Sequence record: NC_041873.1
Direction: 5' to 3' (one strand)
Length of the DNA: 50,298 nt
Source of the DNA: Escherichia phage JMPW2
Shown here piece by piece: positions 19,809 through 41,056 of the stretch. Made by a program: the position numbers and the translations under genes. A model generated the notes under the pieces. It did not search any database. It saw only the letters and a program-made list of their open reading frames with translations, and had not been told where the DNA came from. The stretch's first letter is position 1. Each line of letters starts with the position of its first letter.

Positions 19809-19829
19809 CAACCAATCAGGAGAAACATC

Positions 19830-20487: not shown

Positions 20488-20502
20488 TATATAGGGGGTT
20501 AT

Positions 20503-23376: not shown

Positions 23377-23378
23377 TA

Positions 23379-23732
23379 ATGGCGACACTTGACACTTTCA
23401 GTTGGTGTACGCAGGTTCAAGGGGGCGGCGGCTCCCTTACCACTACCAACAATGACAGATCCATACAGTTTGGAAACGGCCACATGCAGCTTGCATCTTC
23501 TGGATTTAACACCACGCGACGCGAGTATTCAGTTGTCTATGCTGGGGAAGATTTCATGGCTGTTTACGACTTCTGTGATTCTCACCGCATTAAACCTTTC
23601 GCATGGACGCCGCCGGACGGGAAGATCGGAATATGGGTTGTTAAGCCTAACAGCCTGGGCGCGAAGCCAGTATCACGCGACGTGATGGAAATTAATGTCA
23701 CGTTTATGGAGCAGTTTACATCTATGGAATAG
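23379..23732 (+). CDS. minor tail protein M-like
   Basis: Size and position match the lambda-type M/L/K/I/J order. Confidence 0.65.
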   Translation: MATLDTFSWCTQVQGGGGSLTTTNNDRSIQFGNGHMQLASSGFNTTRREYSVVYAGEDFMAVYDFCDSHRIKPFAWTPPDGKIGIWVVKPNSLGAKPVSRDVMEINVTFMEQFTSME

Positions 23733-23748
23733 CACTTCATGACAAAAG
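23728..23748 (+). promoter_or_regulatory. half-box (TAGCAC only)
   Basis: aatagcacttcatgacaaaag. Confidence 0.3.
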
Positions 23749-23770
23749 CCCGCCTTGCGCGGGTTTTTTT
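23748..23770 (+). terminator. rho-independent terminator (copy 1 of identical pair)
   Basis: cccgccttgcgcggg plus T7; identical hairpin at 25928. Confidence 0.65.
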
Positions 23771-23811
23771 GTAGCTGTAGAATGGTTGCAACTAAACAAG
23801 AGGAAAAGACA

Positions 23812-24594
23812 ATGAGCGAAAACAAAAAACTTTATGATGAAGAAAGCGGGAAGAGCCTGTTTCACAACTGCCTTCAATCACTATACCCTGGAGAGATAAT
23901 CACTCTGATTGAAGTTGATGGCAGCAAGTTCGGCGCTCAGGTGTACCGTTTCCACGGGGAAAATATCCAGTACACTCCAGAAGAAATCATGCAGGCACAG
24001 CAAACCGGAACGCTACCGCCGAAAGAAATCACCTTCCGTGGCGAGCAATACGGCGCGCGACCTTTCGGTATATCCGGGATCTCGTTCGACAGTTCCGGCA
24101 AGGCCACAAAGCCACAATTAACGGTGGCAAACATCGATAGTCGCGTATCTGCGATGATTCGTGCATATAACGGACTAATGCAAGCTAAGGTGACTATCTG
24201 GATCACTCAAAAGGACTTAATTCAACCTAACGGCTCAATCGCTGACGGAGCTTACCGAAAACTGGTATACTATATCGAACGCCCGAGCTATGTCGATAAG
24301 AGTGTCGCCAGGTTCGATCTAACGTCTCCTTATGATATGGATGGAATCATGATACCGTCACGACTAACTCAAAGCGTTTGCTATTGGGCGCAGAGGGGAT
24401 GGTATAAAACCGGGAAGGGGTGCGGATACAACGGGCAAAATGGTTACTTCGATAAAGACAATAATCCGGTAGACGATCCTTCGCTGGATTTTTGCCCGGG
24501 AACGGTAACGGCCTGCCGCCTGAGATTCGGCGCAAACAATGAATTGGATTTTGGCGGTTGCGCAGTCGCTTCACTACAGAGGAAAAATCAATGA
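23812..24594 (+). CDS. minor tail protein L-like
   Basis: Position and size in lambda-type order. Confidence 0.7.
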   Translation: MSENKKLYDEESGKSLFHNCLQSLYPGEIITLIEVDGSKFGAQVYRFHGENIQYTPEEIMQAQQTGTLPPKEITFRGEQYGARPFGISGISFDSSGKATKPQLTVANIDSRVSAMIRAYNGLMQAKVTIWITQKDLIQPNGSIADGAYRKLVYYIERPSYVDKSVARFDLTSPYDMDGIMIPSRLTQSVCYWAQRGWYKTGKGCGYNGQNGYFDKDNNPVDDPSLDFCPGTVTACRLRFGANNELDFGGCAVASLQRKNQ

Positions 24595-25325
24595 TTAGTG
24601 CAAAAATTAAACTTGAAATTATGACTCACGCTCAAGAAGAATATCCTCGCGAATGCTGTGGGGTAGTCACCCAAAAGGGCCGCGTACAAAAATACCATCG
24701 CGTTGATAATGTACACCGCGATCCCGAGAATCATTTCATGATGGATGCTGTACAATACGCTTGCATTGAGGACGATGCGGAATCAACAACAATAGCAATT
24801 GTTCACAGCCACACAGGAGACGGGGCTACAACTCTACCAAGCGCTCACGATACGTGCATGTGCAACGAGATGGAAGTTACCTGGATTATTGTTAGCGTGC
24901 CGGAAGGGGATATGCGATTTGTGAAGCCGGAGAAATTGCCTCTGATTGGTCGTCCGTGGTCATTAGGATCATTCGACTGTTACGGTCTTGTTATGGCGTG
25001 GCACAAAGAGCACGGCGTAGAATTGCGCGATCGCCGATTGAATTTTGAATGGTGGAAACCTGAGTACGGAATTAATCTCTATCAGGATTATTACAAGCAG
25101 GATGGCTTCGTTGAGATTCCAGATCAGAATAATCCGTCATTCGGTGATATGGTAATCATGCAGATAGGGCAAAACGTTCCGGTATGGAACCATGCAGGGA
25201 TTTACCTGGGAGATAATCAGATCTTGCATCATGCCTTCGGCAAGCTATCTCGTCGTGATATTTATTCCGGATGGTATCAGGATCATACTGTTTTAATCGT
25301 TCGCCATAAGGATCTTAAATTATGA
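24591..25325 (+). CDS. tail assembly protein K-like (JAMM/MPN plus NlpC/P60)
   Basis: JAMM-like HSHTGDGATTLPSAHD and downstream Cys/His peptidase-like region. Confidence 0.75.
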   Translation: MISAKIKLEIMTHAQEEYPRECCGVVTQKGRVQKYHRVDNVHRDPENHFMMDAVQYACIEDDAESTTIAIVHSHTGDGATTLPSAHDTCMCNEMEVTWIIVSVPEGDMRFVKPEKLPLIGRPWSLGSFDCYGLVMAWHKEHGVELRDRRLNFEWWKPEYGINLYQDYYKQDGFVEIPDQNNPSFGDMVIMQIGQNVPVWNHAGIYLGDNQILHHAFGKLSRRDIYSGWYQDHTVLIVRHKDLKL

Positions 25326-25921
25326 ATGATGTAAAAGTAATTAAATTGTCAGGTTCACTTGGGAGACGCTTCGGCGTCTTTCACCGTTACGCTGTTGACT
25401 CTTACCCGGAAGCCATACGGGCGCTATCCAGTCAGGTGGACGGATTTAAAGAATACATGCAAAGCGAGGTAGGATCTCGTAGCAAGTTTTCAATATTTGT
25501 GGATGGCGTTAACGTGGGACACCATGAAGAGGAAAAATTCAAGTGCGCGAAAGAGATAAGAATCGTACCGATCCCTACTGGCTCTAAGACAGGAGGTCTA
25601 TTTCAGGTTGTATTGGGCGCGGCAATAATGGTTGCAGCATTCTATACTGGCGGCGCGTCTCTGGCTTTAATGGGCACAATGTCCTCTTCTCTGTTTATGA
25701 TGGGCGGCGCTATGGTGCTGGGCGGCGTGATGCAGATGATTTCACCGCAGCCGGGTGGCGCAAACTTTGAAGTTCAATCAAGCAAGAATAAACCTTCGTA
25801 CGCGTTCGGCGGTGCTGTCAATACGACGGCGGCGGGATACCCTCTCCCGGTCCCGTATGGATATCGCGCCGGAGGTGGCGCAACTTTCTCAGCAGGTTCT
25901 TATGCCGAGGATATGAGTTAA
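25322..25921 (+). CDS. tail assembly protein I-like
   Basis: Position; Gly/Ala-rich hydrophobic C-terminal half. Confidence 0.65.
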   Translation: MNDVKVIKLSGSLGRRFGVFHRYAVDSYPEAIRALSSQVDGFKEYMQSEVGSRSKFSIFVDGVNVGHHEEEKFKCAKEIRIVPIPTGSKTGGLFQVVLGAAIMVAAFYTGGASLALMGTMSSSLFMMGGAMVLGGVMQMISPQPGGANFEVQSSKNKPSYAFGGAVNTTAAGYPLPVPYGYRAGGGATFSAGSYAEDMS

Positions 25922-25926
25922 AATTA

Positions 25927-25951
25927 ACCCGCCTTGCGCGGGTTTTTTTTC
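25927..25951 (+). terminator. rho-independent terminator (copy 2 of identical pair)
   Basis: cccgccttgcgcggg plus T8, then TGtATAAT extended -10-like. Confidence 0.65.
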
Positions 25952-25975
25952 GCCTGTATAATGAGTCCACTGATA

Positions 25976-25995
25976 AATAGCACAAAAAGGTAAAC
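25976..25995 (+). promoter_or_regulatory. half-box (TAGCAC only) upstream of J
   Basis: aatagcacaaaaaggtaaac. Confidence 0.3.
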
Positions 25996-25998
25996 ATC

Positions 25999-28900
25999 AT
26001 GATTCAAAAAGTGATAAGCGGATCTAAAGGTGGGTCACAGAAGCCTCATAACCCAGTTGAGATGGAGGACAATCTAATCTCAATCAACAAAATCAAGATC
26101 CTGTTAGCTGTATCTGATGGTGAAATTGACGAAACATTCAGCCTAAAGCAGTTGATGTTTAACTCAGTTCCGGTGCAAAACGAGGATGGATCATTCAACT
26201 TCGAAGGGGTAAGGGCTGAGTTCAGGCCGGGAACTCAGACGCAGGAATACATCAAGGGCATGGAAGATAGCTCAAGTGAGGTAACTGTAAATCGTGAGGT
26301 TACTACCGATAACCCATACACGATCTCAGTAACCAATAAAACACTATCGGCAATACGCATCAAAATGTTTATGCCTCGAGGTGTACGAATTGAAAGCAAT
26401 GGTGATAAAAACGGCGTTCGAGTTGAGTACGAGGTGCAGCAAGCGGTTGATGGCGGTTCGTTTGAGACTGTTCTTACTGACGTAATCGAAGGTAAAACAA
26501 TGTCAGGTTATGATCGAAGCCGTCGCGTAAACCTGCCTAACTTCAACAATCAGGTAATATTCAGAGTTGTTCGAAAGACGCCTGATTCCAATGACTCGAA
26601 TGTCGTTGATGCAATCCAGGTAAGAAGCTATGCCGAGGTCATTGATGCCAAATTCCGATATCCTCTGACTGGTCTTCTTTTCGTAGAGTTCGATTCGAAG
26701 ATGTTCCCAAACCAGTTACCTACGATCTCAATTCGTAAGCGCTGGAAGATTGTAAGCGTTCCGTCGAACTACGACCCAGAATCGCGAACATACAACGGCA
26801 ATTGGGATGGCACTTTCAAAAAAGCATGGACGAACAATCCGGCGTGGGTTCTTTATGACCTGATGATTAATCAGCGTTACGGCTTGGATCAGAAAGAGCT
26901 TGGTATCGCTGTCGATAAATGGGCGCTCTACGAGGCTGCGCAATATTGCGATCAGATGGTTCCTGATGGGAAGGGCGGGACGGAACCTCGATACCTTTGC
27001 GACGTGATAATCCAGTCTCAGACTGACGCTTACAAGGTTATTCGAGATATTTGCTCAATCTTTCGAGGTATGAGCTTTTGGAATGGCGAAAGCATTTCGG
27101 TAATCATCGATAGGCCGCGTGAGCCTGCGTACATCTTCACTAACGACAACGTGGTTAATGGTGACTTCTCCTACACGTTTGCAAGCGAAAAGAGCATGTA
27201 CACGACGTGTAATGTGATGTTTGACGACGAGCAAAACATGTATCAGCAGGACGTTGAGCCAGTATTCGATCGTGAGGCTACTCTACGGTTCGGGAACAAC
27301 GTAACGAGCATTACAGCGATCGGCTGCACACGTCGAAGCGAGGCCAACCGACGCGGGAGATGGATTCTGAAAACTAACCTCCGCAGCACTACGGTAAACT
27401 TCGCTACCGGACTTGAGGGTATGATTCCGACAATCGGAGATGTTGTGGCAATAGCTGATAACTTCTGGTCAAGTAACTTGACGATGAACCTATCAGGGCG
27501 CTTGCTCGAAGTATCCGGTAGTCAGATTTTCTTGCCGCTCCGGGTGGATGCACGCGCGGGTGACTTTATTATCGTAAATAAGCCAGATGGCAAGCCCGTG
27601 AAGCGCACAATATCAAGTGTTAGTGCGGATGGTAAGACTATAGAGGTTAACATTGGCTTTGGCTTTCCTGTGAAGCCTAACACGGTATTCGCTATCGACC
27701 GCACCGACATTGCGTTACAGCAGTACGTCGTGACAAAAATCGATAAGGGCGATGATGATGAGGAATTTACCTACAAAATAACGGCGGTGGAGTACGATCC
27801 TAACAAGTACGATGAGATTGATTACGGAGTTAATATCGACGACCGACCGACGAGCATCGTTGAACCAGATCAGATCCCTAGACCGGAAAACGTGCAAGTG
27901 TCCTCAGAGTCACGAATCGTCCAGGGGATGAGCGTAGAAACGATGATTGTTAGCTGGGATAAAGTGCCGTACGCAGTTTTCTATGACGTCCAGTGGCGAA
28001 AGGATAACGGCAACTGGCAAAATGTACCGCAGACAGCAAACAAAGAGGTATACGTTGAAGGTATTTACGCTGGCAACTATCAGGTTCGCGTTCGCTCCGT
28101 CGCTGGTTCTGGTACAACTTCCGGCTGGTCAAATATCGTCGCAGCGACGTTGACAGGCAAGCAAGGAGAGCCAGGGAGGCCGATTAACCTTACAGCTACA
28201 GATGATGTTGTTTTTGGTATCCGTACAAAATGGGGGTTCTCTGATGGTTCTGGAGATACGGCCTATACAGAGTTGCAACAGTCACCAGATGGAACAGTGG
28301 ATAACGCAAGTTTGCTTTCTTTGATTCCGTACCCGCAGCATGAGTATTATCACTCACCGATGCCTGGAGGGAATATTGTGTGGTATCGGGTAAGGACGGT
28401 TGATAGGATCGGTAACGTGTCTCAGTGGACTGATTTTGTCAGAGGTATGGCATCAACAAACGTTGACGATATCATTGGGGAGATTTCTGTCGATATCGAA
28501 AACTCGCCGGGTTACGAGTGGCTTGTTGATAACGCAACCGACAACGCGGCGCAGAACGCAGCGAACGCAGAGGCAGCAATTGAGAACGCTCTAGCTAATG
28601 ACAAAGACGCGATCTACATGAAGAAGGAGAACGGAAAACGAAAAGCAGAGTACACCAAATCACTGCAACTTATTGCTGATGAGACTCAGGCGCGAGTAAC
28701 AGCAGTTGAGCAGTTAAGGGCAAGTTTTGGTGATCAGATTAGTGCAAGCAATAGCGAATTGCGTGAAGTTATCGCAACTGAGACTGGAGCGCTATCGCGT
28801 GAAATTGACCAACTCAGGGCAGAGATTGGTGATGATATTCAGGCAAGTTTGACTGATATCAGAGAGGCTATAGCAAACGAGACTGAGGCGAGAACGCAAG

Positions 28901-29418
28901 CTGACTTAACACTTAGCGCGCGGCTTGGGGATAACGAGGCGGCACTTGCTCAAAAATTAGACTCTTGGAGCAATGCCAGTTCTACCGGGGCAATGTACGG
29001 CGTCAAGCTGGGTCTGAAATACAACGGACAGGAATATAGCGCAGGCATGGCTATGTCTCTGATTGGTTCCGGCGCAGCTGTTAAGGCGCAAATTCTATTC
29101 GAGGCGTCGCGATTTGCAATCATGACAGGGATGAACGGTCAGACTCAGTATCCTTTCGTTGTTGAAGGTAATCAGGTGATTCTTAATAGCGCCATTATTA
29201 AGAACGGATTCATCACGAATGCGATGATTGGTAATGTTATTCAATCGAATAACTATGTCGTTAACAAGGCTGGCTGGATACTTGACAAGGGTGGAACATT
29301 AGAAAACTACGGAAGTGACGCTGAGGGTGCAATGAAGCAAACTAATACCACAATATCTGTTAGGGATGCGAGTGGTCGCCTGAGGGTTCAGATTGGCAGG
29401 TTGACTGGTTCATGGTAA
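25999..29418 (+). CDS. host specificity / tail tip protein J-like
   Basis: 1139 aa, last and largest of the lambda-type tail-tip order. Confidence 0.85.
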   Translation: MIQKVISGSKGGSQKPHNPVEMEDNLISINKIKILLAVSDGEIDETFSLKQLMFNSVPVQNEDGSFNFEGVRAEFRPGTQTQEYIKGMEDSSSEVTVNREVTTDNPYTISVTNKTLSAIRIKMFMPRGVRIESNGDKNGVRVEYEVQQAVDGGSFETVLTDVIEGKTMSGYDRSRRVNLPNFNNQVIFRVVRKTPDSNDSNVVDAIQVRSYAEVIDAKFRYPLTGLLFVEFDSKMFPNQLPTISIRKRWKIVSVPSNYDPESRTYNGNWDGTFKKAWTNNPAWVLYDLMINQRYGLDQKELGIAVDKWALYEAAQYCDQMVPDGKGGTEPRYLCDVIIQSQTDAYKVIRDICSIFRGMSFWNGESISVIIDRPREPAYIFTNDNVVNGDFSYTFASEKSMYTTCNVMFDDEQNMYQQDVEPVFDREATLRFGNNVTSITAIGCTRRSEANRRGRWILKTNLRSTTVNFATGLEGMIPTIGDVVAIADNFWSSNLTMNLSGRLLEVSGSQIFLPLRVDARAGDFIIVNKPDGKPVKRTISSVSADGKTIEVNIGFGFPVKPNTVFAIDRTDIALQQYVVTKIDKGDDDEEFTYKITAVEYDPNKYDEIDYGVNIDDRPTSIVEPDQIPRPENVQVSSESRIVQGMSVETMIVSWDKVPYAVFYDVQWRKDNGNWQNVPQTANKEVYVEGIYAGNYQVRVRSVAGSGTTSGWSNIVAATLTGKQGEPGRPINLTATDDVVFGIRTKWGFSDGSGDTAYTELQQSPDGTVDNASLLSLIPYPQHEYYHSPMPGGNIVWYRVRTVDRIGNVSQWTDFVRGMASTNVDDIIGEISVDIENSPGYEWLVDNATDNAAQNAANAEAAIENALANDKDAIYMKKENGKRKAEYTKSLQLIADETQARVTAVEQLRASFGDQISASNSELREVIATETGALSREIDQLRAEIGDDIQASLTDIREAIANETEARTQADLTLSARLGDNEAALAQKLDSWSNASSTGAMYGVKLGLKYNGQEYSAGMAMSLIGSGAAVKAQILFEASRFAIMTGMNGQTQYPFVVEGNQVILNSAIIKNGFITNAMIGNVIQSNNYVVNKAGWILDKGGTLENYGSDAEGAMKQTNTTISVRDASGRLRVQIGRLTGSW

Positions 29419-29424
29419 TATCAA

Positions 29425-29451
29425 GGGCATCGAGAGATGCCCTTTTCTTTT
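29425..29451 (+). terminator. rho-independent terminator
   Basis: gggcatc gaga gatgccc plus T-rich tail. Confidence 0.65.
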
Positions 29452-29463
29452 GGAGGATTTATT

Positions 29464-29769
29464 ATGGCGTACGGTATATCAACTTGGGACGCAAATGGCG
29501 TTTATAATAACTATGGAATTAAGCCTATCACGGTTGTTGGTTGGAACTTTTTGTCAGCAGGACAGAATTCAGCATCGTTCAGCTATCAAGTTCCTCCTGG
29601 TATGCATGTGAATTACGTTATAAGCCTTGACGATGGCGCCATTAGTGGGCCTGGCAGGAAAATTATTGCTAGTGGTAATACGATAACAGTAACGCCAACA
29701 AACTCACCAGGGCCAAACGTGTATCCATCATCAAACTGTTACTTAATAGCATATCTGGAGAATGATTAA
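29464..29769 (+). CDS. hypothetical protein downstream of J (paralog 1)
   Basis: N-terminus MAYGISTWDANG matches MSYGAFIDVNG of next gene. Confidence 0.5.
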   Translation: MAYGISTWDANGVYNNYGIKPITVVGWNFLSAGQNSASFSYQVPPGMHVNYVISLDDGAISGPGRKIIASGNTITVTPTNSPGPNVYPSSNCYLIAYLEND

Positions 29770-30458
29770 TGTCATACGGTGCTTTTATAGATGTAAACGG
29801 AAACCCATTCATAACCCCGTTATCCACGCCATTCGCCTTATATGCGAAAGGGGAAATTCAATCAGTAAAGGTTAGTGGTTCACAGGTTGCGGAGAGATAT
29901 GTTCGGATACCTACAGGTGTTCCGGTTATAGCTTTTTGCAAAACAACAAACACGCAGCAGGGGACCGCGCTTTCAGCCTTTACTTTCAGAAGCGGACCCA
30001 ATGTTGGAACTGTTTATATAAGGGGGACAAATCCAGCAAACCAATCATACACGCTAACATATTACATATTTGCCATATTTGAGCAGTCACTACCGAGCTG
30101 GGGTATGGCAATATGGGATGCGTCAGGAAAGCTAGTGCTGACAAATGAGACAAAAGTCCTTAGTGATTTGGTTACAATCGGCACTCCTGGGTACGCTGGC
30201 GGTGGGCTAAACATAGACGCAACACTCAGCGGAAGCTACGCAGTTGTCCCAACTATACTTGGCAACTATCAAATTGTTATCGGCAGATTGCCAACTGGGC
30301 AACCCATAATAGGAAACTCAACAGCAGGCAGTTCATGCAGATACAACGGGAGCACAACGAGAATAAATGCAGCAGCAACCACTGCGGCAGGTCGGATATT
30401 GAACACCACGAATAATGGAAATATTATAACAGCAATAAAAACGGCAGCATACGACTAA
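29769..30458 (+). CDS. hypothetical protein downstream of J (paralog 2, internal repeat)
   Basis: N-terminal motif recurs internally as WGMAIWDASGKLVL. Confidence 0.5.
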   Translation: MSYGAFIDVNGNPFITPLSTPFALYAKGEIQSVKVSGSQVAERYVRIPTGVPVIAFCKTTNTQQGTALSAFTFRSGPNVGTVYIRGTNPANQSYTLTYYIFAIFEQSLPSWGMAIWDASGKLVLTNETKVLSDLVTIGTPGYAGGGLNIDATLSGSYAVVPTILGNYQIVIGRLPTGQPIIGNSTAGSSCRYNGSTTRINAAATTAAGRILNTTNNGNIITAIKTAAYD

Positions 30459-30480
30459 GCCCCTTTCGGGGCTTTTCTTT
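30459..30480. terminator. terminator between convergent genes
   Basis: gcccc tttc ggggc hairpin with T-rich tail on + strand. Confidence 0.55.
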
Positions 30481-30707
30481 TACATCGAGCAATCGTGAGA
30501 CTTGAAGTTATTCTCTGATACGTAATGGAATGAGAATGGATACCCAGCACGTAACAGCATCTCATCACCGCGCATCTTTGATCCAAAAACGGAAACCGAG
30601 TACTCTGCGTCACCTGATTCATAAATCGCAGTACAAGTGCGCTCAGGCATCGATGAGCAACCAGTCAGGATGAATGCCGCAGCAATAATGGTGATTAATT
30701 TTTTCAT
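30480..30707 (-). CDS. small lipoprotein, Cor/Llp-like superinfection-exclusion candidate
   Basis: Signal peptide MKKLITIIAAAFILTGCSS with lipobox LTGC; sits after tail genes on opposite strand. Confidence 0.5.
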   Translation of the reverse strand: MKKLITIIAAAFILTGCSSMPERTCTAIYESGDAEYSVSVFGSKMRGDEMLLRAGYPFSFHYVSENNFKSHDCSM

Positions 30708-30780
30708 TTGCATGTCCTCGTCGTTAGTGTGATTGCATTGTATGTCGCATTTACTTTTATTGCAATAGCGCAATTACAAT

Positions 30781-31190
30781 TTTTTTTCGTGTAACGGGTG
30801 TCTATTTTTGTAACTGGAGATGGTGTTACAAAATCTACCCAATCCGAACGCAGGTAGATATGATAAAAACTCTATATAATATATATAGATAGATAATATT
30901 TAATTTTAGCTTTATATATATAATTATTGTTGTGTAACAGTTGTCTATCGTGTAACTGGTGATTTGATTGATTCGTCAAATTTCTATCATATATGTTCAA
31001 AATTTAATCAATATGGATTCTACTTGTAGCTATCCCTGTATTTCTAAGAAAAAGCGGTTACAAGTATTACACAGTAGACATCACATAAAAATAGACTTAA
31101 GCCATTGATTCCGTTAATGCTGGTTGTAACTTGAGCGATATAGACACGCTATTACACACCAATTACATGTATCCGATTGACTAAACGCTG
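30781..31190. repeat. AT-rich iteron-like cluster (GTGTAAC / TGTCTAT / GTAACTGG motifs)
   Basis: cGTGTAACgggTGTCTATttttGTAACTGG at ~30790 and GTGTAACagtTGTCTATcGTGTAACTGG at ~30935, with inverted copies near 31050 and 31130 and (TA)n tracts. Confidence 0.6.
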
Positions 31191-31235
31191 TTAATGGCTA
31201 TAATGGATTCATCGTAAACGAGGGAGATAAACGCA

Positions 31236-32350
31236 ATGTTCCAGGTGTTCACATCAAGTCAGCTTTCTAATGACGAGTATCATAGCAACGAAGGTTGGGC
31301 GGCAGAGTATGTAAGCGGTTCTAGCCTTGCAGAAATTTATCAGACTTGCCCGGCTAACTGGAGATTCAAGAAGAATGAGACAACGAAGGCGCTGGAGTTT
31401 GGTACTCAGTCGCATACCAACTTTGAGAGCCGAGATCTGTTTACTGCAACGTATGCACGTTGTCCGGCTCCGTCAGAGTTCAAGGATCTGATTACGTCAC
31501 AAGCCGCACTGGCTGCAAAATTAAAATCTTTCGGCCTGAAAGGTACATCCGGTAAGCAGTACCCGGACCTCATCAAGATGATGGTTGATTGCGGTGAAGA
31601 GCTAAACGTCCAATATCTGATCGAGTTGATTGCGGAAGCAGAGGCGCGCTCTGAAGGAAAGAAATTGGTTGACGCTGACAAATACGACGCTTGCATGAAG
31701 ATGAGAGCAATCCTTGAACAAAATCCTGATCACGAAGCGTGCATCAACAGTGAAACGGCGCAGCGTGAGATTTCAATCTTCGGTGAGATATCCGGCGTCA
31801 AGGTTAAGGTTCGACTTGACCATCTGGACTACAAAGAGAATGTTCCAGGTCGTGTCCTGACTGGTTATGATGAGAATGGAGATCCGGTATTCGAAGATGT
31901 TATTTTCCCTGAAGCACTGATGAGAATGGAGATCCGGTATTCGAAGATGTTATTTTCCCTGAAGCACTGATTATCACTGACTTCAAAACAACAATGAGCG
32001 CCAACCCGTTAGAGTTCCCGAGACTGGCATACAATCACGGGTATTATCTGAAAATGGCCTTGCAGCATGATCTGCTACGACGCGCAATCCAGGCTGGCGC
32101 TTTTGAAGGCAACTTCCCGGAATATATCCCGATCGTAGTTCGATTGCTGGCTCAGGAGAAAAAAGAGCCTTACATCGCACTTGCTTACCGTATGACTATG
32201 GAGCAAATCAGGATCGGTCGTAGCCAGTATGTTAGCGTAGTCCACACTTACAAGGCTTGCTCTGAAATGGATGTTTGGCCTGGGTACGCTGGCGACGCAA
32301 GCGAGATTGAACTTGAAACGCCATCATGGGTGCGTTACCAAAATAAGTAA
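31236..32350 (+). pseudogene. PD-(D/E)XK recombination exonuclease, frameshifted by 50-bp tandem duplication
   Basis: 31871..31920 and 31921..31970 are identical; removing one copy fuses ORFs 31236..31970 and 31994..32350 in frame and restores ...FPEALIITDFKTT... Confidence 0.6.
31871..31970 (+). repeat. perfect 50-bp direct tandem duplication (2 copies)
   Basis: tgagaatggagatccggtattcgaagatgttattttccctgaagcactga repeated exactly. Confidence 0.95.
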
Positions 32351-32424
32351 ACGGCACAAATAGCTAAACAAATAATTAATGAGGTGTTATAATGCACCTC
32401 ATACACCAATCAGGAGAAGTTAAG

Positions 32425-33072
32425 ATGCAATTATCACCAGAAACAAACGAAATTCTTCCCGCACTGTTCAATGCTCGCAACAAATTTGCTAAAGCAAAGA
32501 AGGACGCAAAAAACAATCACCTGAAAAATTCATACGCAACCCTTGATGCAATGATGGCGGCCGTTAGCCCGGCGCTCACCGATAACGATATTATGATCCT
32601 GCAATCAATGCTGGACACCAGCACGGAAACAACCTTCCATCTTGAAACGATGCTGATTCACAAATCCGGGCAATGGGCCAAGTTCTTCATGATGATGCCT
32701 ATTGCAAAGCGCGATCCTCAAGGTGTAGGCTCAGCGATGACGTATGCGCGGCGTTACTCATTAGCCGCAGCGCTGGGGATTAGCCAGAGTGATGACGATG
32801 CTCAGCTTGCAGTGAAATCTGTCAAGGACTGGAAAAAAGAACTTGATGCGTGTGAAGATATCGAATCACTGAAAGAGGTATGGGCTAACGCTTACCGCCA
32901 GACGGACACGGCAAGCAAGTCAATCATTCAGGATCACTACAACGCACTTAAGGCTAAGTTTGAGATCGGTAAAGCTCGTGGTATTCGCCCGGCGCAACCG
33001 GAGCAGAAAAAACAGGTTGAAGCAACGAGCGCGAAGCCTGTACAATCTCAATCAATCACCAACTTCGAATAA
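32425..33072 (+). CDS. erf: Erf-family single-strand annealing protein
   Basis: SAMTYARRYSLAAALGISQSDDDAQ resembles the P22 Erf block SSYARKYCLNGLFGIDDAKDAD; conserved leader upstream. Confidence 0.65.
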   Translation: MQLSPETNEILPALFNARNKFAKAKKDAKNNHLKNSYATLDAMMAAVSPALTDNDIMILQSMLDTSTETTFHLETMLIHKSGQWAKFFMMMPIAKRDPQGVGSAMTYARRYSLAAALGISQSDDDAQLAVKSVKDWKKELDACEDIESLKEVWANAYRQTDTASKSIIQDHYNALKAKFEIGKARGIRPAQPEQKKQVEATSAKPVQSQSITNFE

Positions 33073-33117
33073 TCATCAGGGAGGCTTCGGTCGCCCATAA
33101 ATTTTAGGAGAGAAATA

Positions 33118-33531
33118 ATGCATATTATCACTGGCGAGATCCGCAAAGAACCTAAGATTCTTGAACGTAACGGCGGCAATACTTATATCATCGAACTGGC
33201 AGAAAGCTATAAGCCTCGTGATGGCGATCGTGAATACACCAACTACACATTCTTTTTTAGCGACGGTGGAAAGCCTGGCCTTGCTGATTGGTATCGTGAA
33301 GCGTTTCAGGTGGGTCGGGTAATTTCAGTATCTTGCGAATCTCTGAAGATTTATTCACGCGAGCATAACGGAACGGTTTATAACTCTCTGCAAGCGGCAG
33401 ACTTCCCGAAGTTGGTATTTAGTCAACGAGGGCAAAGCAATCAACAACGAGCACCGCAGCAACAACAGCGAACGCAATCACAGCCACAGCCAAATCCTCA
33501 ATCAACTTTCGATGATGATATCCCGTTCTAA
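33118..33531 (+). CDS. ssb: single-stranded DNA-binding protein
   Basis: Gln/Pro-rich linker ending in the canonical SSB tail DDDIPF. Confidence 0.7.
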   Translation: MHIITGEIRKEPKILERNGGNTYIIELAESYKPRDGDREYTNYTFFFSDGGKPGLADWYREAFQVGRVISVSCESLKIYSREHNGTVYNSLQAADFPKLVFSQRGQSNQQRAPQQQQRTQSQPQPNPQSTFDDDIPF

Positions 33532-33560
33532 CAAAAATCCCCGCAATGCGGGGATTTTAT
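33531..33560. terminator. bidirectional terminator
   Basis: ccccgc aat gcgggg hairpin flanked by A run and T run between convergent genes. Confidence 0.65.
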
Positions 33561-35116
33561 CATTTGGACTTCAACATTTTTATCTCTTCTTGTAACTCTT
33601 CAACTTTCTTTATTGTATCCTGTAAAGCTCTCATAGTGTCAAGCAATAAAGGAGTTGTATCAAGCTCAAGCCTTTCAACTTTTGGCCCGTTTAGCTCGTG
33701 GCTCTCATACACCCTTCTCTTAACATATAGATTGTCGATCTCTTCTATCTCCTGAGCTATAACACCTCTCCTTACCCTTTCTTGCTCATCATCGTTAAAT
33801 ATAAAGTTCCTAAATCTCATTGATTTTATGTTGTTGTATGCAATGCTTGATTCATCATCCTTTATGCCGTGCTTTATATTTCTGTCAGATGCCGGAACCT
33901 GTTGGAAACTTCCAGCCCCTTGCGGTCCAGCGTAAGATATTTGCCCTGAAGCCATAAACCTGAAATGCATTTGCAGACCAATATTGCCTGCTCCATCCCT
34001 ATCTTGAGTGCCTACTGATATTTGTGCCCTGGGCCATTCAGGATTACCCGTAGTCATCATGCCAAATGCTACGCCGCCAACGTATCCCTGACCTCTGGTG
34101 TCACACGATCCAGCAATAAGTGATTGATAGTTTTCAGCACCACTATCAGCGGTGTAAGCATTACCCTGGAAGCATGAAGCAGACCACATCTGGTTGTAAC
34201 CCATAGATGTTTTCTGGCATAAAAACTGATTAGCTCTGAATCTATTGTTAGTCTCGAAGTAGTTTGCCCCCTCATAAAATAATAAAGCCCCAGCATAACC
34301 ATTATCGCTACGTTCTTTTCTGACGTAAATACCTGGCGTAGATATTCCATCAGGTGACATAATCATCAATGATGACAATATGGACTGACTACCCCAGCTA
34401 GAACCGTCCCATGAATTCCTTCCTGCACCTATAGCGCCAGTGGTGTTAATAGTAAGAAAGTTAACAGCATCATTTTCACCTAACCCAATATTTTTTCTTG
34501 ACTCTTTTTTATCCTCAAGACCAGCTAGATTGCCATCCTTAGTTAAAAGATTTTCAGCGTCAACGCTATTTGCTGCGTCCTTTGCTTCCTGCGCACTGAC
34601 TGCTGCTGCATCTTTTGCGCTAACCGCTGCATCGCGTGCAGCGTTGGCTGCGTCACGCGCTAATTCAGCCTGATTTTGCGCAGCTTGAGAATCAGATTTC
34701 GCCTGATTCACATCAGCAACTATTTGCTCAAGTTTATTCATATCAGCAACTATTTGCTCAAGTTTATTCATATCAAGCTGATTTATCAGGTCTATAGCTG
34801 CCGCAATCTCAGTCTCTTTGCTTTGATAGTATCGAAGAGTCTCGGCGACGTTTTGAGCTAATCCGTTAACGGTTAGAGAGTCATTAAGTAGGATCACATA
34901 CTTACCGTCATCGGCAGTCTGACCATCAGTAGAGATAGCCTTTAATTCTGTATCACTAACGATATCGCTAATCACAGCTAGCTTAATTGGTTGCTCAAGG
35001 AACACGATAGTTGCACCTACGCGAATAAGAGCAAGCTGGTCTTTCCATTTTGTATCGGTTCCGTGAACCGTTCCGTCTGCATCCATTGATGCAGTACCGC
35101 GTCGATATAAAGCCAT
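33560..35116 (-). CDS. tail fibre protein with C-terminal intramolecular chaperone-like domain
   Basis: Fibre-like N-terminus MALYRRGTASMDADGTVHGTDTKW; Ala/Gln coiled region; C-terminal coiled-coil ...LQDTIKKVEELQEEIKMLKSK. Confidence 0.7.
   Translation of the reverse strand: MALYRRGTASMDADGTVHGTDTKWKDQLALIRVGATIVFLEQPIKLAVISDIVSDTELKAISTDGQTADDGKYVILLNDSLTVNGLAQNVAETLRYYQSKETEIAAAIDLINQLDMNKLEQIVADMNKLEQIVADVNQAKSDSQAAQNQAELARDAANAARDAAVSAKDAAAVSAQEAKDAANSVDAENLLTKDGNLAGLEDKKESRKNIGLGENDAVNFLTINTTGAIGAGRNSWDGSSWGSQSILSSLMIMSPDGISTPGIYVRKERSDNGYAGALLFYEGANYFETNNRFRANQFLCQKTSMGYNQMWSASCFQGNAYTADSGAENYQSLIAGSCDTRGQGYVGGVAFGMMTTGNPEWPRAQISVGTQDRDGAGNIGLQMHFRFMASGQISYAGPQGAGSFQQVPASDRNIKHGIKDDESSIAYNNIKSMRFRNFIFNDDEQERVRRGVIAQEIEEIDNLYVKRRVYESHELNGPKVERLELDTTPLLLDTMRALQDTIKKVEELQEEIKMLKSK
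34712..34771 (-). repeat. perfect 30-bp in-frame tandem duplication inside tail fibre gene
   Basis: atcagcaactatttgctcaagtttattcat x2, encoding MNKLEQIVAD twice. Confidence 0.95.
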
Positions 35117-35135
35117 AATATAAACTCCTTAAGTA

Positions 35136-35155
35136 AATAGCACGAATTGCTAAAC
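35136..35155 (+). promoter_or_regulatory. palindromic box between primase and tail fibre genes
   Basis: aatagcacgaattgctaaac. Confidence 0.5.
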
Positions 35156-35192
35156 ACAGATTTTATCATCGCGCCATGAGTCTTGCAACGGG

Positions 35193-35218
35193 CAATAAAA
35201 AACCGCCCGAAGGCGGTT
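35193..35218 (-). terminator. rho-independent terminator after primase
   Basis: aaccgcccgaaggcggtt hairpin preceded by A run on + strand. Confidence 0.6.
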
Positions 35219-36152
35219 ATAGTAGATCACTTGCTGAGAATAACTTAGCTTGCATTCCTGAGCGGTATCCTCCCTGATTCGGGATGATTATTTTTAATTG
35301 TCTGTCGTCTGCCATGTATAAAGTTTCTTTATCAGATGGTTCGCACGCCACCCTTACCTCCCGATCTCCCTTGTATCTGTACGCAACCATTTCTAGATTT
35401 TCAGGAGTGAAGCAGGCCCATACCTCTTGCTTTGTGTGAAATGCAATATGCTGAGCATCAATCCAATTAAGGCATAAGTAGATCGCTTTTTCAGTTTTAC
35501 CAGTCACGGCAACCGAGCAACTTGTGTATTTCTTTGCATAAAATGACTCCCTACCCTCCTCATCAATAATCAAAATATTGCAAAACTCTTCATCAATACC
35601 GTCCTCGTGTACAAGTTGACATGGTATGGTGTGAAATACACTCTCGCCGCCATCCTCTCGACGTTTTACGCCAACGTCGAATGATTCAGTAGGTAGCGAC
35701 TCAAACATGCTTAGAGGTGTGTTTATGCGCTTCTCTGTGCGCTCCATAACTTTCATCACTGCCTCGTGTTCTGCCATCATAACGTTGACGCCAGCTACCG
35801 GAGTTCTTCGCGCTTTTTTGTTGGCCTTGACAATGTATTCCTGCGGAACCTTGCCGAGAAATCTTCCCAGGATATTTATACATTCGCTGTACGGCATACC
35901 AGTTAATTTCATCAACCAACCGACTCCAGAGTCGTTACCGCATGAGTTGCAGATCGCACCGCCGTCGCCCGGAGTGTTAAGGTTATCAGTCCAGCGAAAG
36001 CGGTCCTTACCCCCGCAGTTAGGGCAAGGTTGGTGTTTCTTATTAAAAACATCATTCGGCAATCCGCAGATTGATTGGAAAGCCTCGCGCCATAACCCCT
36101 TCATGTACGGCAAAACGTCCTCTTTCTGAAACATCATAAATTCTTCGTTCAC
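35217..36152 (-). CDS. DNA primase (zinc-ribbon type)
   Basis: CPNCGG...CNSCG zinc-binding pairs in N-terminal region; track start is GTG, ATG at 36137 also possible. Confidence 0.55.
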   Translation of the reverse strand: MNEEFMMFQKEDVLPYMKGLWREAFQSICGLPNDVFNKKHQPCPNCGGKDRFRWTDNLNTPGDGGAICNSCGNDSGVGWLMKLTGMPYSECINILGRFLGKVPQEYIVKANKKARRTPVAGVNVMMAEHEAVMKVMERTEKRINTPLSMFESLPTESFDVGVKRREDGGESVFHTIPCQLVHEDGIDEEFCNILIIDEEGRESFYAKKYTSCSVAVTGKTEKAIYLCLNWIDAQHIAFHTKQEVWACFTPENLEMVAYRYKGDREVRVACEPSDKETLYMADDRQLKIIIPNQGGYRSGMQAKLFSASDLL

Positions 36153-36164
36153 TTCCAGATCTCC

Positions 36165-36205
36165 AAAATAAAAAACGCGTAGAAGGATGTTAACCCGCTA
36201 CGCGT
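36165..36205 (-). terminator. rho-independent terminator after HTH gene
   Basis: acgcgtag...ctacgcgt stem with A-rich run on + strand. Confidence 0.5.
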
Positions 36206-36210
36206 CGTTT

Positions 36211-36230
36211 GTTTTAACTAAAAATGCTAT
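36211..36230 (-). promoter_or_regulatory. palindromic box variant
   Basis: gttttaactaaaaatgctat (reverse orientation). Confidence 0.45.
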
Positions 36231-36666
36231 TGGTCGTCCCGATATCTTCCTTCTTCACGACGCGCATAAATTTCTTGTTCTTGCATCGCTTCTCAAGGCA
36301 CTTGCCGTTACCGTCAAACTTCAGGTCGAATCGCAACCATGCGGCACGAAATCCTTTACACCCCTGTCGTCGGTAAGCACGATGCGCAGCTTCAGCACCT
36401 TGCCACGAAATCATGTTGCGTTCTTTCCAGCCTTGCACCGTCTGATTGCTAACCTTTAGAGCTTTTGCGCAGGCCGCAGGGCCACCATAATATTCGATAA
36501 GCGCATCAAGTCGCGCTCGCAATCCGGCGCGTGTTTCTTCTTTATGAATATAGAAGCCGCAGCGCTGTCGAGGCTTTTTATCTTTACCGCGTCGTGTTCC
36601 GTTGTTACCATTGATGTGACGTTTATCGATTTCACCAGTTGACTCTGCGATACGTTGAATACTCAT
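36214..36666 (-). CDS. HTH DNA-binding protein (putative regulator)
   Basis: XRE-like helix-turn-helix AKALKVSNQTVQGWKERN; basic N-terminus. Confidence 0.5.
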   Translation of the reverse strand: MSIQRIAESTGEIDKRHINGNNGTRRGKDKKPRQRCGFYIHKEETRAGLRARLDALIEYYGGPAACAKALKVSNQTVQGWKERNMISWQGAEAAHRAYRRQGCKGFRAAWLRFDLKFDGNGKCLEKRCKNKKFMRVVKKEDIGTTNSIFS

Positions 36667-36677
36667 CTTAATTCTCC

Positions 36678-36734
36678 TATAGCACTTTTTGCTAAAAACG
36701 TTTACTGTATGCCGTGTATTATAGCGTAAACGTT
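36678..36734 (+). promoter_or_regulatory. palindromic box plus stem-loop in divergent region upstream of helicase
   Basis: tatagcactttttgctaaaaac; hairpin aacgtttac...gtaaacgtt with TATTATAG loop. Confidence 0.55.
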
Positions 36735-36765
36735 ACAACGATTCAAAGGATTAATAGACGTGACA

Positions 36766-38778
36766 ATGAACATTAAAAAGCAGATTGCATTACTTGGCGA
36801 GGACTATATAAAGCGAACTCAGGAGCGATTCACTGTCGGTGAGGTTGTTCCTTATCCGTACCAGGTTGTTGCTTATGCTGAGATCGCGAAACGCCTATCA
36901 AATTACGAGCATCCATTCTTTGTTAAAGCGTCAGTATCTGCGGGTAAGACCATCATTTTTGCTATGGTTGCAAAGCAGTGTCAGAAAATGGGCTTAAAAA
37001 TGCTCGTTCTGGCTCGCCAGGGTGAGATTGTCGATCAGGATAGCGAGGAGATTGACAACTTTGGGGTAACTAACTCCATATTCTCAGCCTCATTAGGTAT
37101 TAAGTCCTGCTATTTTCCTATCGTGGTAGGCTCAGAGGGTACTGTTGCAAATGGCCTCGACAATGAGCTTGCTGATTTCGTCCCGCATGTAATTGGGATC
37201 GACGAATGTCACCAGGTGGATTGGGAAGACCTTGCGCAAGCCATTGAGGGCAAGGAAACAATGGAACAAATGAGGGGCGAGAAGGGAAAAATCATCATGG
37301 ATGGAGATATTCCCCTGATTGGTAATGATGGAAAACCTTTGCTTGGGACTAAGCGCAGTCAGTACACGATCGTAATCATGGAAATGATGCGGCGCTGTAA
37401 AAAGGTTCACGGTCACGATCTCAGAATATTTGGTATGACTGGATCTGAATTTCGTGGCGTAGTTCCTATTCTGGTAGAGAATCCGAAAGCATTGGGATTC
37501 TGGCGTGAGCGAGTAACTGATATCGACACAAACTATCTGATTGAGTTCGGTTCTGTTGTGCCGACAATATTCGGTTCAACAGACGGAGTTCATTACGATC
37601 TGGATAAGTTCAAGGCGTCGAGCGAGGACGGAGTGCAGGACTTTACAGAGAAAGACATGAAGGCTATGGAAGATGAGATCCTTCATGATAAATCACTGAC
37701 TCAGCGAATCATGCAAATGGTCGCCAAAAAGGCCGAAGAGCGTAACGCTGTTCTTATTACATGTGCTGGGGTGCGTCACTGCAAAGAGGCGGCGGCGGCG
37801 CTTCCGCCAGGAAGCACCTATGCAATCATCACTGGCGATACTGACACCAAAACGCGCAAGAAGATTCTTGATGATGTAAGGGCAGGAAAGATTAAATATA
37901 CCTTTCAGGTCATGGCGCTCACGACTGGCGTTAACGTTCCAAATTGGGATTTCAGCGTAATACTTCGCAAGATAGGGTCGCTCACGCTGTTGATTCAACT
38001 TTTGGGTAGGGGTATGCGTCTGCTTAAACCCTGGCAGGTTGCTGATGGAATGGTTAAGCAGGACCATCTGGTATGGGATTTCGCAGGTACGATGGATGAG
38101 TTGGGTCAGCTTTATTTCGATCCGATACTTGAGCAAGCACAATTCCAAAAGCGCTTTGAAAACGGCAAAGATCCGAAAACATGTCCGAAATGCGGTTGCG
38201 TAAATAGCTTCTATGCTCGACGATGCGTTAATGTCATTGATGGTGAACGTTGCGATCATTTCTGGACTTCTCAGATTTGTGAGGACCAGGTTGACGAGCG
38301 CACCGGAAAAATCCTTGTTAAAGGATGCGGTGCAGAGAATGACGTTGTGGCCCGAGTCTGTCGTTGTTGTGATGTTTCGCTTGTCGATCCTAACCTGAAG
38401 TTATCCGGTAAGGCGTACACTAAGAATGACTGGTATGAAGTAAAGAATTTTGAGGTTACGCTAACCAAAAACCAGAAAGGCATAATATACAAATACACTC
38501 TTATTAACGATGATGGTGATGAGTTCAAGGCGTATGAAAAATTCTTCCCCGAGTCTGACTCTAAGATTTGCGGTACGATATGGAAAACTAAAGGTGTATT
38601 GCCACACGTATCGGATCCTAAAATGCGCCGATACTTTATCGGAATGAAGAACGCCATCAAGATTTTGCAATACTCACATCATATTGCTCACCCGGTGCGC
38701 GTAACTCATCGTCGCAACCAGAAGAAAGAAGATATTATCTCACGAAAAGACTTTGGTATGGAGGATATCCCGGAATGA
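36766..38778 (+). CDS. SF2 DExH-box helicase with C-terminal zinc ribbon
   Basis: Walker A SVSAGKT, DECH box (IGIDECHQV), C-terminal CPKCGC...C..C. Confidence 0.8.
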   Translation: MNIKKQIALLGEDYIKRTQERFTVGEVVPYPYQVVAYAEIAKRLSNYEHPFFVKASVSAGKTIIFAMVAKQCQKMGLKMLVLARQGEIVDQDSEEIDNFGVTNSIFSASLGIKSCYFPIVVGSEGTVANGLDNELADFVPHVIGIDECHQVDWEDLAQAIEGKETMEQMRGEKGKIIMDGDIPLIGNDGKPLLGTKRSQYTIVIMEMMRRCKKVHGHDLRIFGMTGSEFRGVVPILVENPKALGFWRERVTDIDTNYLIEFGSVVPTIFGSTDGVHYDLDKFKASSEDGVQDFTEKDMKAMEDEILHDKSLTQRIMQMVAKKAEERNAVLITCAGVRHCKEAAAALPPGSTYAIITGDTDTKTRKKILDDVRAGKIKYTFQVMALTTGVNVPNWDFSVILRKIGSLTLLIQLLGRGMRLLKPWQVADGMVKQDHLVWDFAGTMDELGQLYFDPILEQAQFQKRFENGKDPKTCPKCGCVNSFYARRCVNVIDGERCDHFWTSQICEDQVDERTGKILVKGCGAENDVVARVCRCCDVSLVDPNLKLSGKAYTKNDWYEVKNFEVTLTKNQKGIIYKYTLINDDGDEFKAYEKFFPESDSKICGTIWKTKGVLPHVSDPKMRRYFIGMKNAIKILQYSHHIAHPVRVTHRRNQKKEDIISRKDFGMEDIPE

Positions 38779-39191
38779 TTACAGACAAAGGTGATTATTT
38801 AGAATTTTACGAGAGAGATCCAAGCGACACTCGAAAGGAGGACGCTCATCAGGTGGATTGTGTATCCTGGCTGAAATACAATTTTCCTCACCTTCTATTT
38901 TGGCACACTGTCAATGAAGGTGAAAAAACAATCACATCGGCGCTCAGGGATGAGCAGGCCGGATTACTTAAAGGCGTGTCAGACTTCGTTATCCTGATTG
39001 GTGTTAACTCACGATACCCGTTTGCAGCAATCGAACTTAAGCGGGTTAATAAGTCAGGCAAAGGAAAGGCGTCACCAGTCAGCGACAAGCAAAGGGAATT
39101 TCTCCAAAAGGTCCGGGAGCGTGGCGGCTTCTCTGCCGTCGCATACGGATTCGGGCAATTCAAGATCGCAATTTACGAAATGATGAAATAG
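38775..39191 (+). CDS. VRR-NUC domain nuclease
   Basis: VDCVSWL...DFVILIG...AAIELKRV resembles the VRR-NUC fold pattern; ATGA overlap with helicase. Confidence 0.55.
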   Translation: MITDKGDYLEFYERDPSDTRKEDAHQVDCVSWLKYNFPHLLFWHTVNEGEKTITSALRDEQAGLLKGVSDFVILIGVNSRYPFAAIELKRVNKSGKGKASPVSDKQREFLQKVRERGGFSAVAYGFGQFKIAIYEMMK

Positions 39192-39207
39192 CACTTTTTG
39201 TTAAAAC
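39187..39207 (+). promoter_or_regulatory. palindromic box upstream of dam
   Basis: aatagcactttttgttaaaac. Confidence 0.5.
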
Positions 39208-39258
39208 TGCCGGAATGGAATCTGGCATTATTATCTCACCAACACTAGAGGACTAAAA

Positions 39259-39972
39259 ATGAAAGACTTTAATGATATCGAAACTATCGACTTTGCTGAA
39301 ACTGGTTGCTCATTCACTCGCGAAGCAATAGCGTTTGGCGGTTATTATCAGGCACTAAAAACTCCAACATGCAAAGAGATTTCAGGCCGTCGATATAAGG
39401 GAACCAATACGCCGGATGTTGTTCGTGATTTATGGTCAACCCCGCGCGAGGTTATTGCGTACCTTGAGGGGCGTTATGGAAAATACGATCTCGACGCTGC
39501 GGCAAGCGAAGAAAATAAAGTTTGCGAGAAGTTTTATTCTCAGGAAACAAACTGATTAAAACGTTGGTGGGGTAAAAACAAGCATGTATGGTTAAACCCT
39601 CCTTATAGTCGACCTGATATATTCGTCAAGAAGGCGATCGAGCAAATGGAGCACAATAATCAGATTGATATTCTGTTGCCTGCCGATAATTCTACAGCGT
39701 GGTTTACTGAGGCGCGACAGCACGCGGCTGAAATCATCTGGATTGAAGCTGACTTGACTGAGGATATTGACGGCAACGAGTATGCTCGATCCGGACGACT
39801 GGCGTTTATATCCGGTGAAACCGGAAAGGCCGTAGATGGTAATAACAAAGGTTCGGTAATTTTTATCATGCGCGAACTTAAAGATGGTGAGACGCAGCAA
39901 ACTCACTATATCCCAATCACAAGCATTTGCCCTTCGGTGAAAAACAAGCGCGCAAAAGTGAGGAAAGTATGA
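39259..39972 (+). pseudogene. dam: phage Dam-type N6-adenine methyltransferase interrupted by in-frame TGA at 39553..39555
   Basis: Same frame either side of the TGA: upstream LWSTPREVIAYLEGRYGKYDLDAAAS, downstream WLNPPYS (motif IV); track ORFs 39259..39555 and 39646..39972. Confidence 0.7.
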
Positions 39973-40220
39973 TGAACGAGAAAATGATTCCGGTTAAGTT
40001 AACTGATCAAGGTTTATGGCTGCTTTATCGAGCTACGTGCTGCGAGATTATGGAGCGAAACGGATTGACTAATGATGTTATTGGTTGCGATCTGTGGGAG
40101 TTCACTAGTTCTCTTGATATGTCTTTCGATGAGATAAAAAATGAATACATAGAGAATTGGCCTTCAATCATACAGAGAGACGTAGAGGAACTTAAAGCTG
40201 ATATGATCGTTCAGCACTAA
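39969..40220 (+). CDS. hypothetical protein
   Basis: Internal ATG of track ORF 39927..40220 with SD gaggaaag. Confidence 0.5.
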   Translation: MMNEKMIPVKLTDQGLWLLYRATCCEIMERNGLTNDVIGCDLWEFTSSLDMSFDEIKNEYIENWPSIIQRDVEELKADMIVQH

Positions 40221-40254
40221 TTGCTAAAACTACCCGGCGAAAGTCGGGTATAGT
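40211..40254 (+). promoter_or_regulatory. palindromic box plus stem-loop
   Basis: tcagcactaattgctaaaac; hairpin tacccg...cgggta then TATAGT. Confidence 0.55.
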
Positions 40255-40286
40255 TATTTCATCAAAACGAAATGAGGAATAAGAAG

Positions 40287-40496
40287 ATGGCACGCATTAA
40301 CGCAAACTTTTTCAATATCGCTCAACAGTCCGCAAAAATGGCTGTTCATATCACTGACAAGAAAGGTGGCAACTTTGATTGGGATATTGCTATGAACTTC
40401 CTTAAAATGGCTTATTACCTCTGCTCAGTCAAAGATGTTGAGTGTTTTATTGAAAGCGTGGAGAAACTAACCAATGCTGATAAAAAAACAAGGTAA
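40287..40496 (+). CDS. hypothetical protein
   Basis: Internal ATG of track ORF 40272..40496; module upstream. Confidence 0.5.
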   Translation: MARINANFFNIAQQSAKMAVHITDKKGGNFDWDIAMNFLKMAYYLCSVKDVECFIESVEKLTNADKKTR

Positions 40497-40978: not shown

Positions 40979-41056
40979 AACTTTATTTTGCTGTAGTATT
41001 AACACCGCTAATTTCATTTTCAGTAATGTATTTCATTATCATGTAAGGATTAAAAT

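Follow-up and report, generated by a model that had tools for sequence, protein, structure and literature searches.

A perfect 50-bp tandem duplication frameshifts the RecE-like exonuclease gene in the genome sequence of Escherichia phage JMPW2

The genome sequence of Escherichia phage JMPW2 carries a perfect 50-bp tandem duplication that breaks the reading frame of a gene for a RecE-like recombination exonuclease. The window analysed is the whole record NC_041873.1 (50,298 nucleotides), a complete T1-like genome (Drexlerviridae, Tunavirus). The frame is lost just ahead of the codons for the catalytic Asp-x-Lys motif, relatives preserve the ancestral allele with a single copy, the duplication recurs in none of the sequences that we searched, and the genus offers a precedent for perfect tandem duplication in another gene. 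We lean, by a little, towards a genuine and very recent tandem duplication that knocked out the exonuclease of the isolate, or of a substantial fraction of the stock. The duplication is an ordinary lesion, of a type already described, in a familiar gene family, and introduces neither a new mechanism nor a new system.

We compared the two copies directly and found positions 31871..31920 and 31921..31970 identical without a mismatch, exactly as the initial annotation had described them. Tandem Repeats Finder reported one array at this place (31868..31971, period 50, 2.1 copies, 100% matches, score 208), and a perfect repeat of a 50-mer within 50 kb is not a product of chance. Identity at period 50 extends over 104 nt, that is, two units of 50 nt and four further nucleotides, TGAT, of which three fall to the left of the bounds 31871..31970 and one to the right. 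With this extension included, copy 1 occupies 31868..31917 on the plus strand, running from the last base of the Y211 codon through A227 to the first base of the L228 codon. Copy 2 follows at 31918..31967 on the same strand, out of frame for ribosomes that start at 31236, and the TGAT at 31968..31971 (plus strand) is a direct repeat of the first four nucleotides of the unit, forming the microhomology of the junction. The boundary between the copies reads CCCTGAAGCAC on its left and TGATGAGAATGG on its right, or in its flanked form …TTTTCCCTGAAGCAC and TGATGAGAATGGAGATCC…, and the exit from a copy leads into …TGATTATCACTGAC. In the ancestral allele, with its single copy, the unit already has a TGAT at either end, the two lying 50 nt apart. 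The copies are thus identical, head to tail and bounded by a short direct repeat of the single-copy allele, the arrangement that defines a slippage duplication. We looked for a DNA hairpin at the duplication that would favour slippage and found none, the fold being no better than that of shuffled sequences (z = +1.39).

The length of 50 nt is not a multiple of 3, and the 354-codon exonuclease gene is frameshifted into fragments of 244 and 118 amino acids. The 5′ fragment (31236..31970, plus strand) comprises 228 native codons, 16 out-of-frame codons and a TGA stop at 31968-31970; it ends in MRMEIRYSKMLFSLKH, and the initial annotation had correctly seen this end as out of frame. The fragment retains H60, E178 and D195, the last encoded at 31818..31820 (plus strand, in an RLDH motif) and the first acidic residue of the PD-(D/E)XK site. 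The 3′ remnant (31994..32350, plus strand) is a 118-aa open reading frame that covers residues 238-354 of the intact protein. The codons GAC TTC AAA of the catalytic (D/E)xK motif, D232-F-K234 (31979..31987, plus strand), lie between the premature stop and the ATG at 31994 and are therefore in no canonical reading frame, whether opened by ATG, GTG or TTG; a TGA at 31910 closes their frame upstream. Near-cognate codons stand in frame ahead of DFK (CTG at 31967, ATT at 31970 and ATC at 31973), and the sequence holds no Shine-Dalgarno motif upstream of 31994 or of these codons. We also searched for a programmed frameshift site. The only heptamers of the form X XXY YYZ are TTTCCCT at 31904 and at 31954, and neither fits: the second is out of phase, and the first is in phase but its -1 frame meets the TGA at 31910. 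Deletion of one copy in silico yielded a 354-aa open reading frame reading ...DPVFEDVIFPEALIITDFKTTMSANPLEF..., whereas in JMPW2 the frame is broken after codon 228 and no single uninterrupted frame spans the whole nuclease domain. Judged by its reading frames, JMPW2 appears to hold a disrupted copy of a RecE-like family member, not a functional one, and the locus as written could probably not encode an active nuclease.

The restored 354-aa protein matched Pfam PF12684 (DUF3799, PDDEXK-like) at 59.1 bits against a cut-off of 26 (E 6.9e-16). The two fragments matched phrog_412, 'exonuclease VIII', at adjacent and non-overlapping profile positions (135-296 and 307-410), which is the pattern of a split gene, and 'exonuclease VIII' is also the name under which related phage records annotate the gene. 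Across 30 homologues, down to 48% identity, H60, E178, D195, D232, K234 and Q260 are among the invariant residues. A sequence search of the PDB with the single restored protein gave no match; the profile of the 30-homologue alignment had E. coli RecE (3H4R) as its sole match there (E 3.1e-6) and placed ITD[FY]K on I-M-D-V-K of RecE. The earlier suggestion that IITDFK holds the D-x-K of the active site is borne out by this alignment and by the invariance of D232 and K234.

An AlphaFold model of the T1 orthologue (pLDDT 89.8, pTM 0.81) had the same RecE structure as its best PDB match (3H4R, E 8.6e-8, prob 1.00, TM 0.62 normalised to target), followed by the RecB-family nucleases Exo5, AdnAB, AddAB and Cas4. 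The model folds residues 188-211 and 217-236 into a single long beta-hairpin, with D195 on the first strand and D232 and K234 on the second. The duplicated codons D212-A227 make up the turn and most of the second strand, so that copy 1 is predicted to encode this part of the hairpin. The break interrupts one of the beta-strands of the core sheet. The length of the hairpin segment varies among homologues, and the shorter ones lack it. By profile and model, the intact protein is best described as a RecE-like PD-(D/E)XK nuclease with predicted 5′-3′ exonuclease activity on dsDNA. The initial annotation had spoken of a YqaJ/RecE-like nuclease, of which the RecE-like half stands (PF12684 and 3H4R) and the YqaJ half falls: the restored protein has no match to YqaJ (PF09588), PF12684 is the only family reported at E <= 0.01, and the structures of lambda Exo and LHK-Exo match the fold only weakly (E 0.05-0.2).

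RecE, the exonuclease VIII of the Rac prophage, is a protein of 866 aa. The JMPW2 gene resembles recE in lying beside a gene for a single-strand annealing protein, as recE lies beside recT, but the annealing partner in JMPW2 is of the Erf family and not RecT. The restored protein shares only about 15% identity with RecE, is without the large N-terminal extension and has a long beta-hairpin inserted between its first Asp and D-x-K. A further difference is that the exonuclease gene is interrupted in JMPW2, which does not encode the intact enzyme.

We next turned to related phages, using 61 records of which 59 cover the whole exonuclease gene. Its span is exactly 1065 nt, with one copy of the unit, in 59 of these 59. 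Single proteins of 319-387 aa make up 119 of the 120 homologue clusters listed, the exception being a 207-aa fragment from a 2.2-kb contig. A 354-aa exonuclease was likewise present in all 9 distinct records that span the locus among contigs encoding an SSB or tail-fibre protein identical to that of JMPW2. A natural division into two genes, which the initial annotation had considered, is therefore not what orthologues show. T1 ST29 ('exonuclease VIII') and its Tunavirus orthologues, such as SH2 gp50 and XHV15788 of vB_Henu5_2, occupy the same locus, and the order cor, exonuclease, erf, ssb, tail fibre is alike in T1, SH2 and JMPW2. At the protein level the restored exonuclease is 98% identical to the T1 cluster representative, and its DNA is 99.9% identical to that of SH2, Henu5_2 and FCWL1, differing by one base from SH2, Henu5_2 and others. 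These orthologues are uninterrupted genes of 1065 nt, whereas the JMPW2 gene with its duplication measures 1115 nt.

The proposal that removal of one copy would rejoin the two reading frames proved exact: over its 1065 nt the restored gene agrees with natural alleles in the Logan contigs L013 and L017 at 100.000% identity. Contig L013 (ERR15349234_20902) matches JMPW2 27068..34741 over 7,624 nt with zero mismatches, copy number apart. It ends inside a 30-bp tandem repeat of the tail-fibre gene yet runs unbroken through the exonuclease locus. Logan assemblies appear to break at tandem repeats, and the duplication junction is therefore likely to be absent or rare in that sample. We considered whether ERR15349234 might be the source reads of JMPW2 itself and rejected this, as the run was not returned for three other exact JMPW2 proteins; we accordingly regard the run as having come from a separate phage with this allele and draw nothing from it about the JMPW2 assembly. 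The same two observations, identity over 7,624 nt in a run not returned for other JMPW2 proteins, suggest that the block from tail tip to tail fibre may circulate as an exchangeable module. The HNH proteins led to further Logan contigs (L003-L006), which at no more than 95-96% identity to JMPW2 were uninformative. Searches for k-mers of the junction gave zero matches in IMG/VR, JGI metagenomes and GTDB genomes, the duplication was not found in E. coli genomes and plasmids, and exact look-up of the two truncated exonuclease products in public assemblies returned none on record. On these comparisons the duplication appears to be private to the JMPW2 sequence and would have arisen, or been made, later than the most recent substitution in the DNA around it, over at least 7.6 kb.

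The genes downstream are intact, as the initial annotation had stated. The erf gene (32392..33072, plus strand) encodes an Erf-family single-strand annealing protein that matches PF04404 and phrog_155; relatives annotate its start at an internal ATG, giving 215 aa. The ssb gene (33118..33531, plus strand) encodes a protein of 137 aa (phrog_44, E 1e-22), and an identical SSB is encoded by 15 public contigs examined. Upstream of the exonuclease gene, a sigma-70-like promoter match (TTGACT-16-TATAAT, 31177..31204, plus strand) agrees with 11 of 12 consensus positions; it is a match to the consensus only, and the number of sigma-70-like sites in the region equals the shuffle expectation. A second promoter-like site, TAAACA-17-TATAAT with a TG-extended -10 element, lies directly upstream of erf (32365..32393, plus strand). 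Expression of erf need not then rely on read-through from the exonuclease gene, and no polar effect is expected. The TG-extended TATAAT ahead of erf is enclosed in a loop between the arms of a perfect inverted repeat of 8 bp (ATGAGGTG ... CACCTCAT, 32379-32402).

Within the genome, the local order is tail tip J, cor, exonuclease, erf, ssb, tail fibre (on the opposite strand), primase and helicase. The closest INPHARED matches of JMPW2 are SH2 and Henu5_2, at about 98.6%. Its positions 6919..41269 align with vB_Henu5_2 and SH2 at about 98.7%, and in the alignment with Henu5_2 the 50-nt insertion is the only gap. The genome is a mosaic, in which this central 34 kb (6919-41269) is SH2/Henu5_2-like at 98.7% and the arms (1-6900 and 41270-50298) resemble T1 (about 95-96%) more than SH2 (about 89-93%). 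Over 60 nt at either end (1-60 and 50239-50298), JMPW2 aligns in register with the ends of T1 NC_005833, and the SH2 and Henu5_2 records begin elsewhere than the T1 reference. T1-like phages package DNA by the headful and have no fixed ends. That the JMPW2 ends nevertheless match the T1 reference indicates that the genome was treated as a circle and rotated to T1 coordinates, so that the ends of the original contig now lie in its interior; at its present ends there is no terminal overlap.

Two genes for HNH (HNH_3) homing endonucleases, at 6424-6918 and 42263-42745 of JMPW2, are present in T1 (ST63 and ST15) and absent from SH2 and Henu5_2. The index of the assembly collection lists the exact HNH_3 proteins of JMPW2 in more than 800 blocks, suggesting that T1-like phage DNA occurs very widely in public sequencing runs. 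We also noted intergenic repeats of about 56 nt at 1445-1500, 2466-2521, 5300-5355, 7487-7542, 39185-39240 and 42188-42243. They have the form AATAGCAC-N5/6-TTG(C/T)TAAAAC, followed by a short inverted repeat with a TATAGT-like hexamer in its loop, and by their sequence resemble the conserved '21-base intergenic repeats' described for T1-like phages, the function of which is listed as an open question in the TLS paper (PMC11447400).

Tandem duplication of this form has a precedent in the genus. The tail-tip gene ST33 of T1 (NC_005833, positions 27809-28010) contains a perfect 99-bp tandem duplication of two 99-nt units and four further nucleotides, which is in frame and lengthens the J-like tail protein by 33 aa. 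It is found in three T1 records (AY216660/NC_005833, MK213796 and MN153797), and the region is single-copy in most other Tunavirus records and in JMPW2. Both duplications are thus perfect, head to tail and of the form 2xN+4, with the single-copy state preserved in relatives. The ST33 unit, however, is a multiple of 3, remains in frame, is present in all three T1 records and is clearly tolerated, whereas the JMPW2 duplication is out of frame and has been seen once. The recurrence of the ST33 duplication in three T1 records argues that this mutational mode is real in the genus. JMPW2 has a further tandem repeat, of 30 bp (34706-34775, 2.3 copies, 97% identity), in its tail-fibre gene (33560..35116, minus strand); this repeat is in frame (NKLEQIVADM / NKLEQIVADV), and SH2 and vB_Henu5_2 have conserved it. 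JMPW2 34741, inside the tail-fibre repeat, is the point at which each of six independent Logan contigs (L012-L018) stops, which indicates that the repeat breaks assemblies made with k=31.

If the exonuclease duplication is real, it would have arisen by replication slippage (template switching) between the two TGATs that stood 50 nt apart in the ancestral gene. Translation would leave the native frame after L228 and stop 16 codons later, and the product would lack both the D232-x-K234 motif of the active site and the C-terminal third of the fold and is, to judge from these losses, probably inactive. The phage would have lost its own 5′-3′ resection nuclease while still encoding Erf and SSB. The same record would also be obtained if a circular contig whose ends overlapped by 50 nt had been rotated to the T1 origin untrimmed, in which case the real gene is intact; an untrimmed overlap that survives the re-orientation of a circular contig is a known assembly artefact. 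We rate this origin as a serious possibility, if on balance a doubtful one. The rotation of JMPW2 to the T1 reference ends supplies the precondition for an untrimmed overlap in the interior of the sequence, and a perfect, undiverged duplication in a rotated genome is just what such an overlap leaves behind. Untrimmed overlaps from SPAdes or MEGAHIT, however, have the length of an odd k, and the even period of 50 therefore excludes that common source; the artefact would need an overlap of k-1 with k=51, or an overlap-layout assembler, with either of which a period of 50 is compatible. An overlap of arbitrary position would, moreover, seldom bring the four nucleotides of identity beyond the two units, though it could, as at least 4 nt of extra identity is expected at only 1.8% of positions in the JMPW2 genome. 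The TGAT extension is instead the signature expected from slippage between short direct repeats. The 34 kb aligned with Henu5_2 contain no other indel either, which speaks for an assembly otherwise free of indel errors.

The distribution of the duplication pulls the other way. It is private, being absent from the 59 phage records, from the spanning contigs and from all collections searched, and a natural allele exists that is 100% identical and has one copy. A lone 50-bp difference from L013 in flanking DNA with zero SNPs over 7.6 kb is a priori unusual for a real event. The exonuclease is intact in every relative examined, which implies strong purifying selection and counts against a real knockout, and it is probably needed for normal growth. 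Work by Ritchie and colleagues, including that of Pugh and Ritchie in 1984, is said to have found the T1 recombination genes 3.5 and 4 conditionally essential for concatemer formation. We take these classical genes to be the exonuclease functions of T1; if they are needed for concatemers, poor growth on ordinary hosts would be expected of a true null. Weighing both sides, we think it slightly more likely than not that the duplication is present in phage DNA and not just in the assembly.

A reversible on/off switch, which the initial annotation had offered as a third possibility, finds little in the data to sustain it. As a programmed contingency locus, the exonuclease would be toggled by slippage of 50 nt, for instance against a defence that senses Exo-Erf, and we consider this very unlikely. 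The perfect duplication could in principle revert by precise loss of one copy, and probably can, and the hairpin that contains the duplicated segment varies in length and is lacking from shorter homologues. Against a switch, the second copy recurs in no relative: the 59 genomes, the spanning contigs and 119 of the 120 clusters listed are single-copy and intact, and the junction is in none of the collections searched. Known slippage switches consist of many copies of units of 1-10 nt, an architecture unlike two 50-nt copies with 4 nt of homology, and no DNA structure stabilises the repeat. More improbable still, to the point that we give it hardly any weight, is that active enzyme continues to be made through frameshifting in the second copy or assembly of a split protein. 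Some re-initiation is conceivable at the second reading frame, which starts 24 nt past the premature stop, or at the near-cognate codons ahead of DFK, but none of these is preceded by a Shine-Dalgarno motif, and the TTTCCCT heptamers are in the wrong phase or lead straight into TGA. Neither canonical fragment contains D232-x-K234, and in the model the two would have to meet inside a beta-strand of the core sheet.

Recombination functions of this kind can bear on phage defence. In another phage, Exo and Erf license Gabija, and loss of the Exo-Erf module is documented as a contributor to escape from Gabija and also from P2 Old (PMC12407980), which offers, in principle, a selective rationale for a real knockout. 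By analogy, a duplication that was both real and selected might have allowed JMPW2 to evade a defence licensed by Exo-Erf, and later excision of one copy would regain the gene, amounting to a reversible switch by accident; we regard this as very unlikely.

In practical terms, the finding marks the record as one to be checked or, if the duplication is real, supplies a natural exonuclease-null T1-like phage. Should it be an artefact, the record needs correction, as automated annotation would split or drop a core gene. If it is real, JMPW2 would be a natural null of the T1-type recombination exonuclease with Erf and SSB intact. Such a strain would allow one to ask whether T1-like phages need a resection nuclease of their own for concatemers and growth, which host pathways substitute for the exonuclease, and whether its loss alters sensitivity to defences that sense Exo and its single-strand annealing partner.
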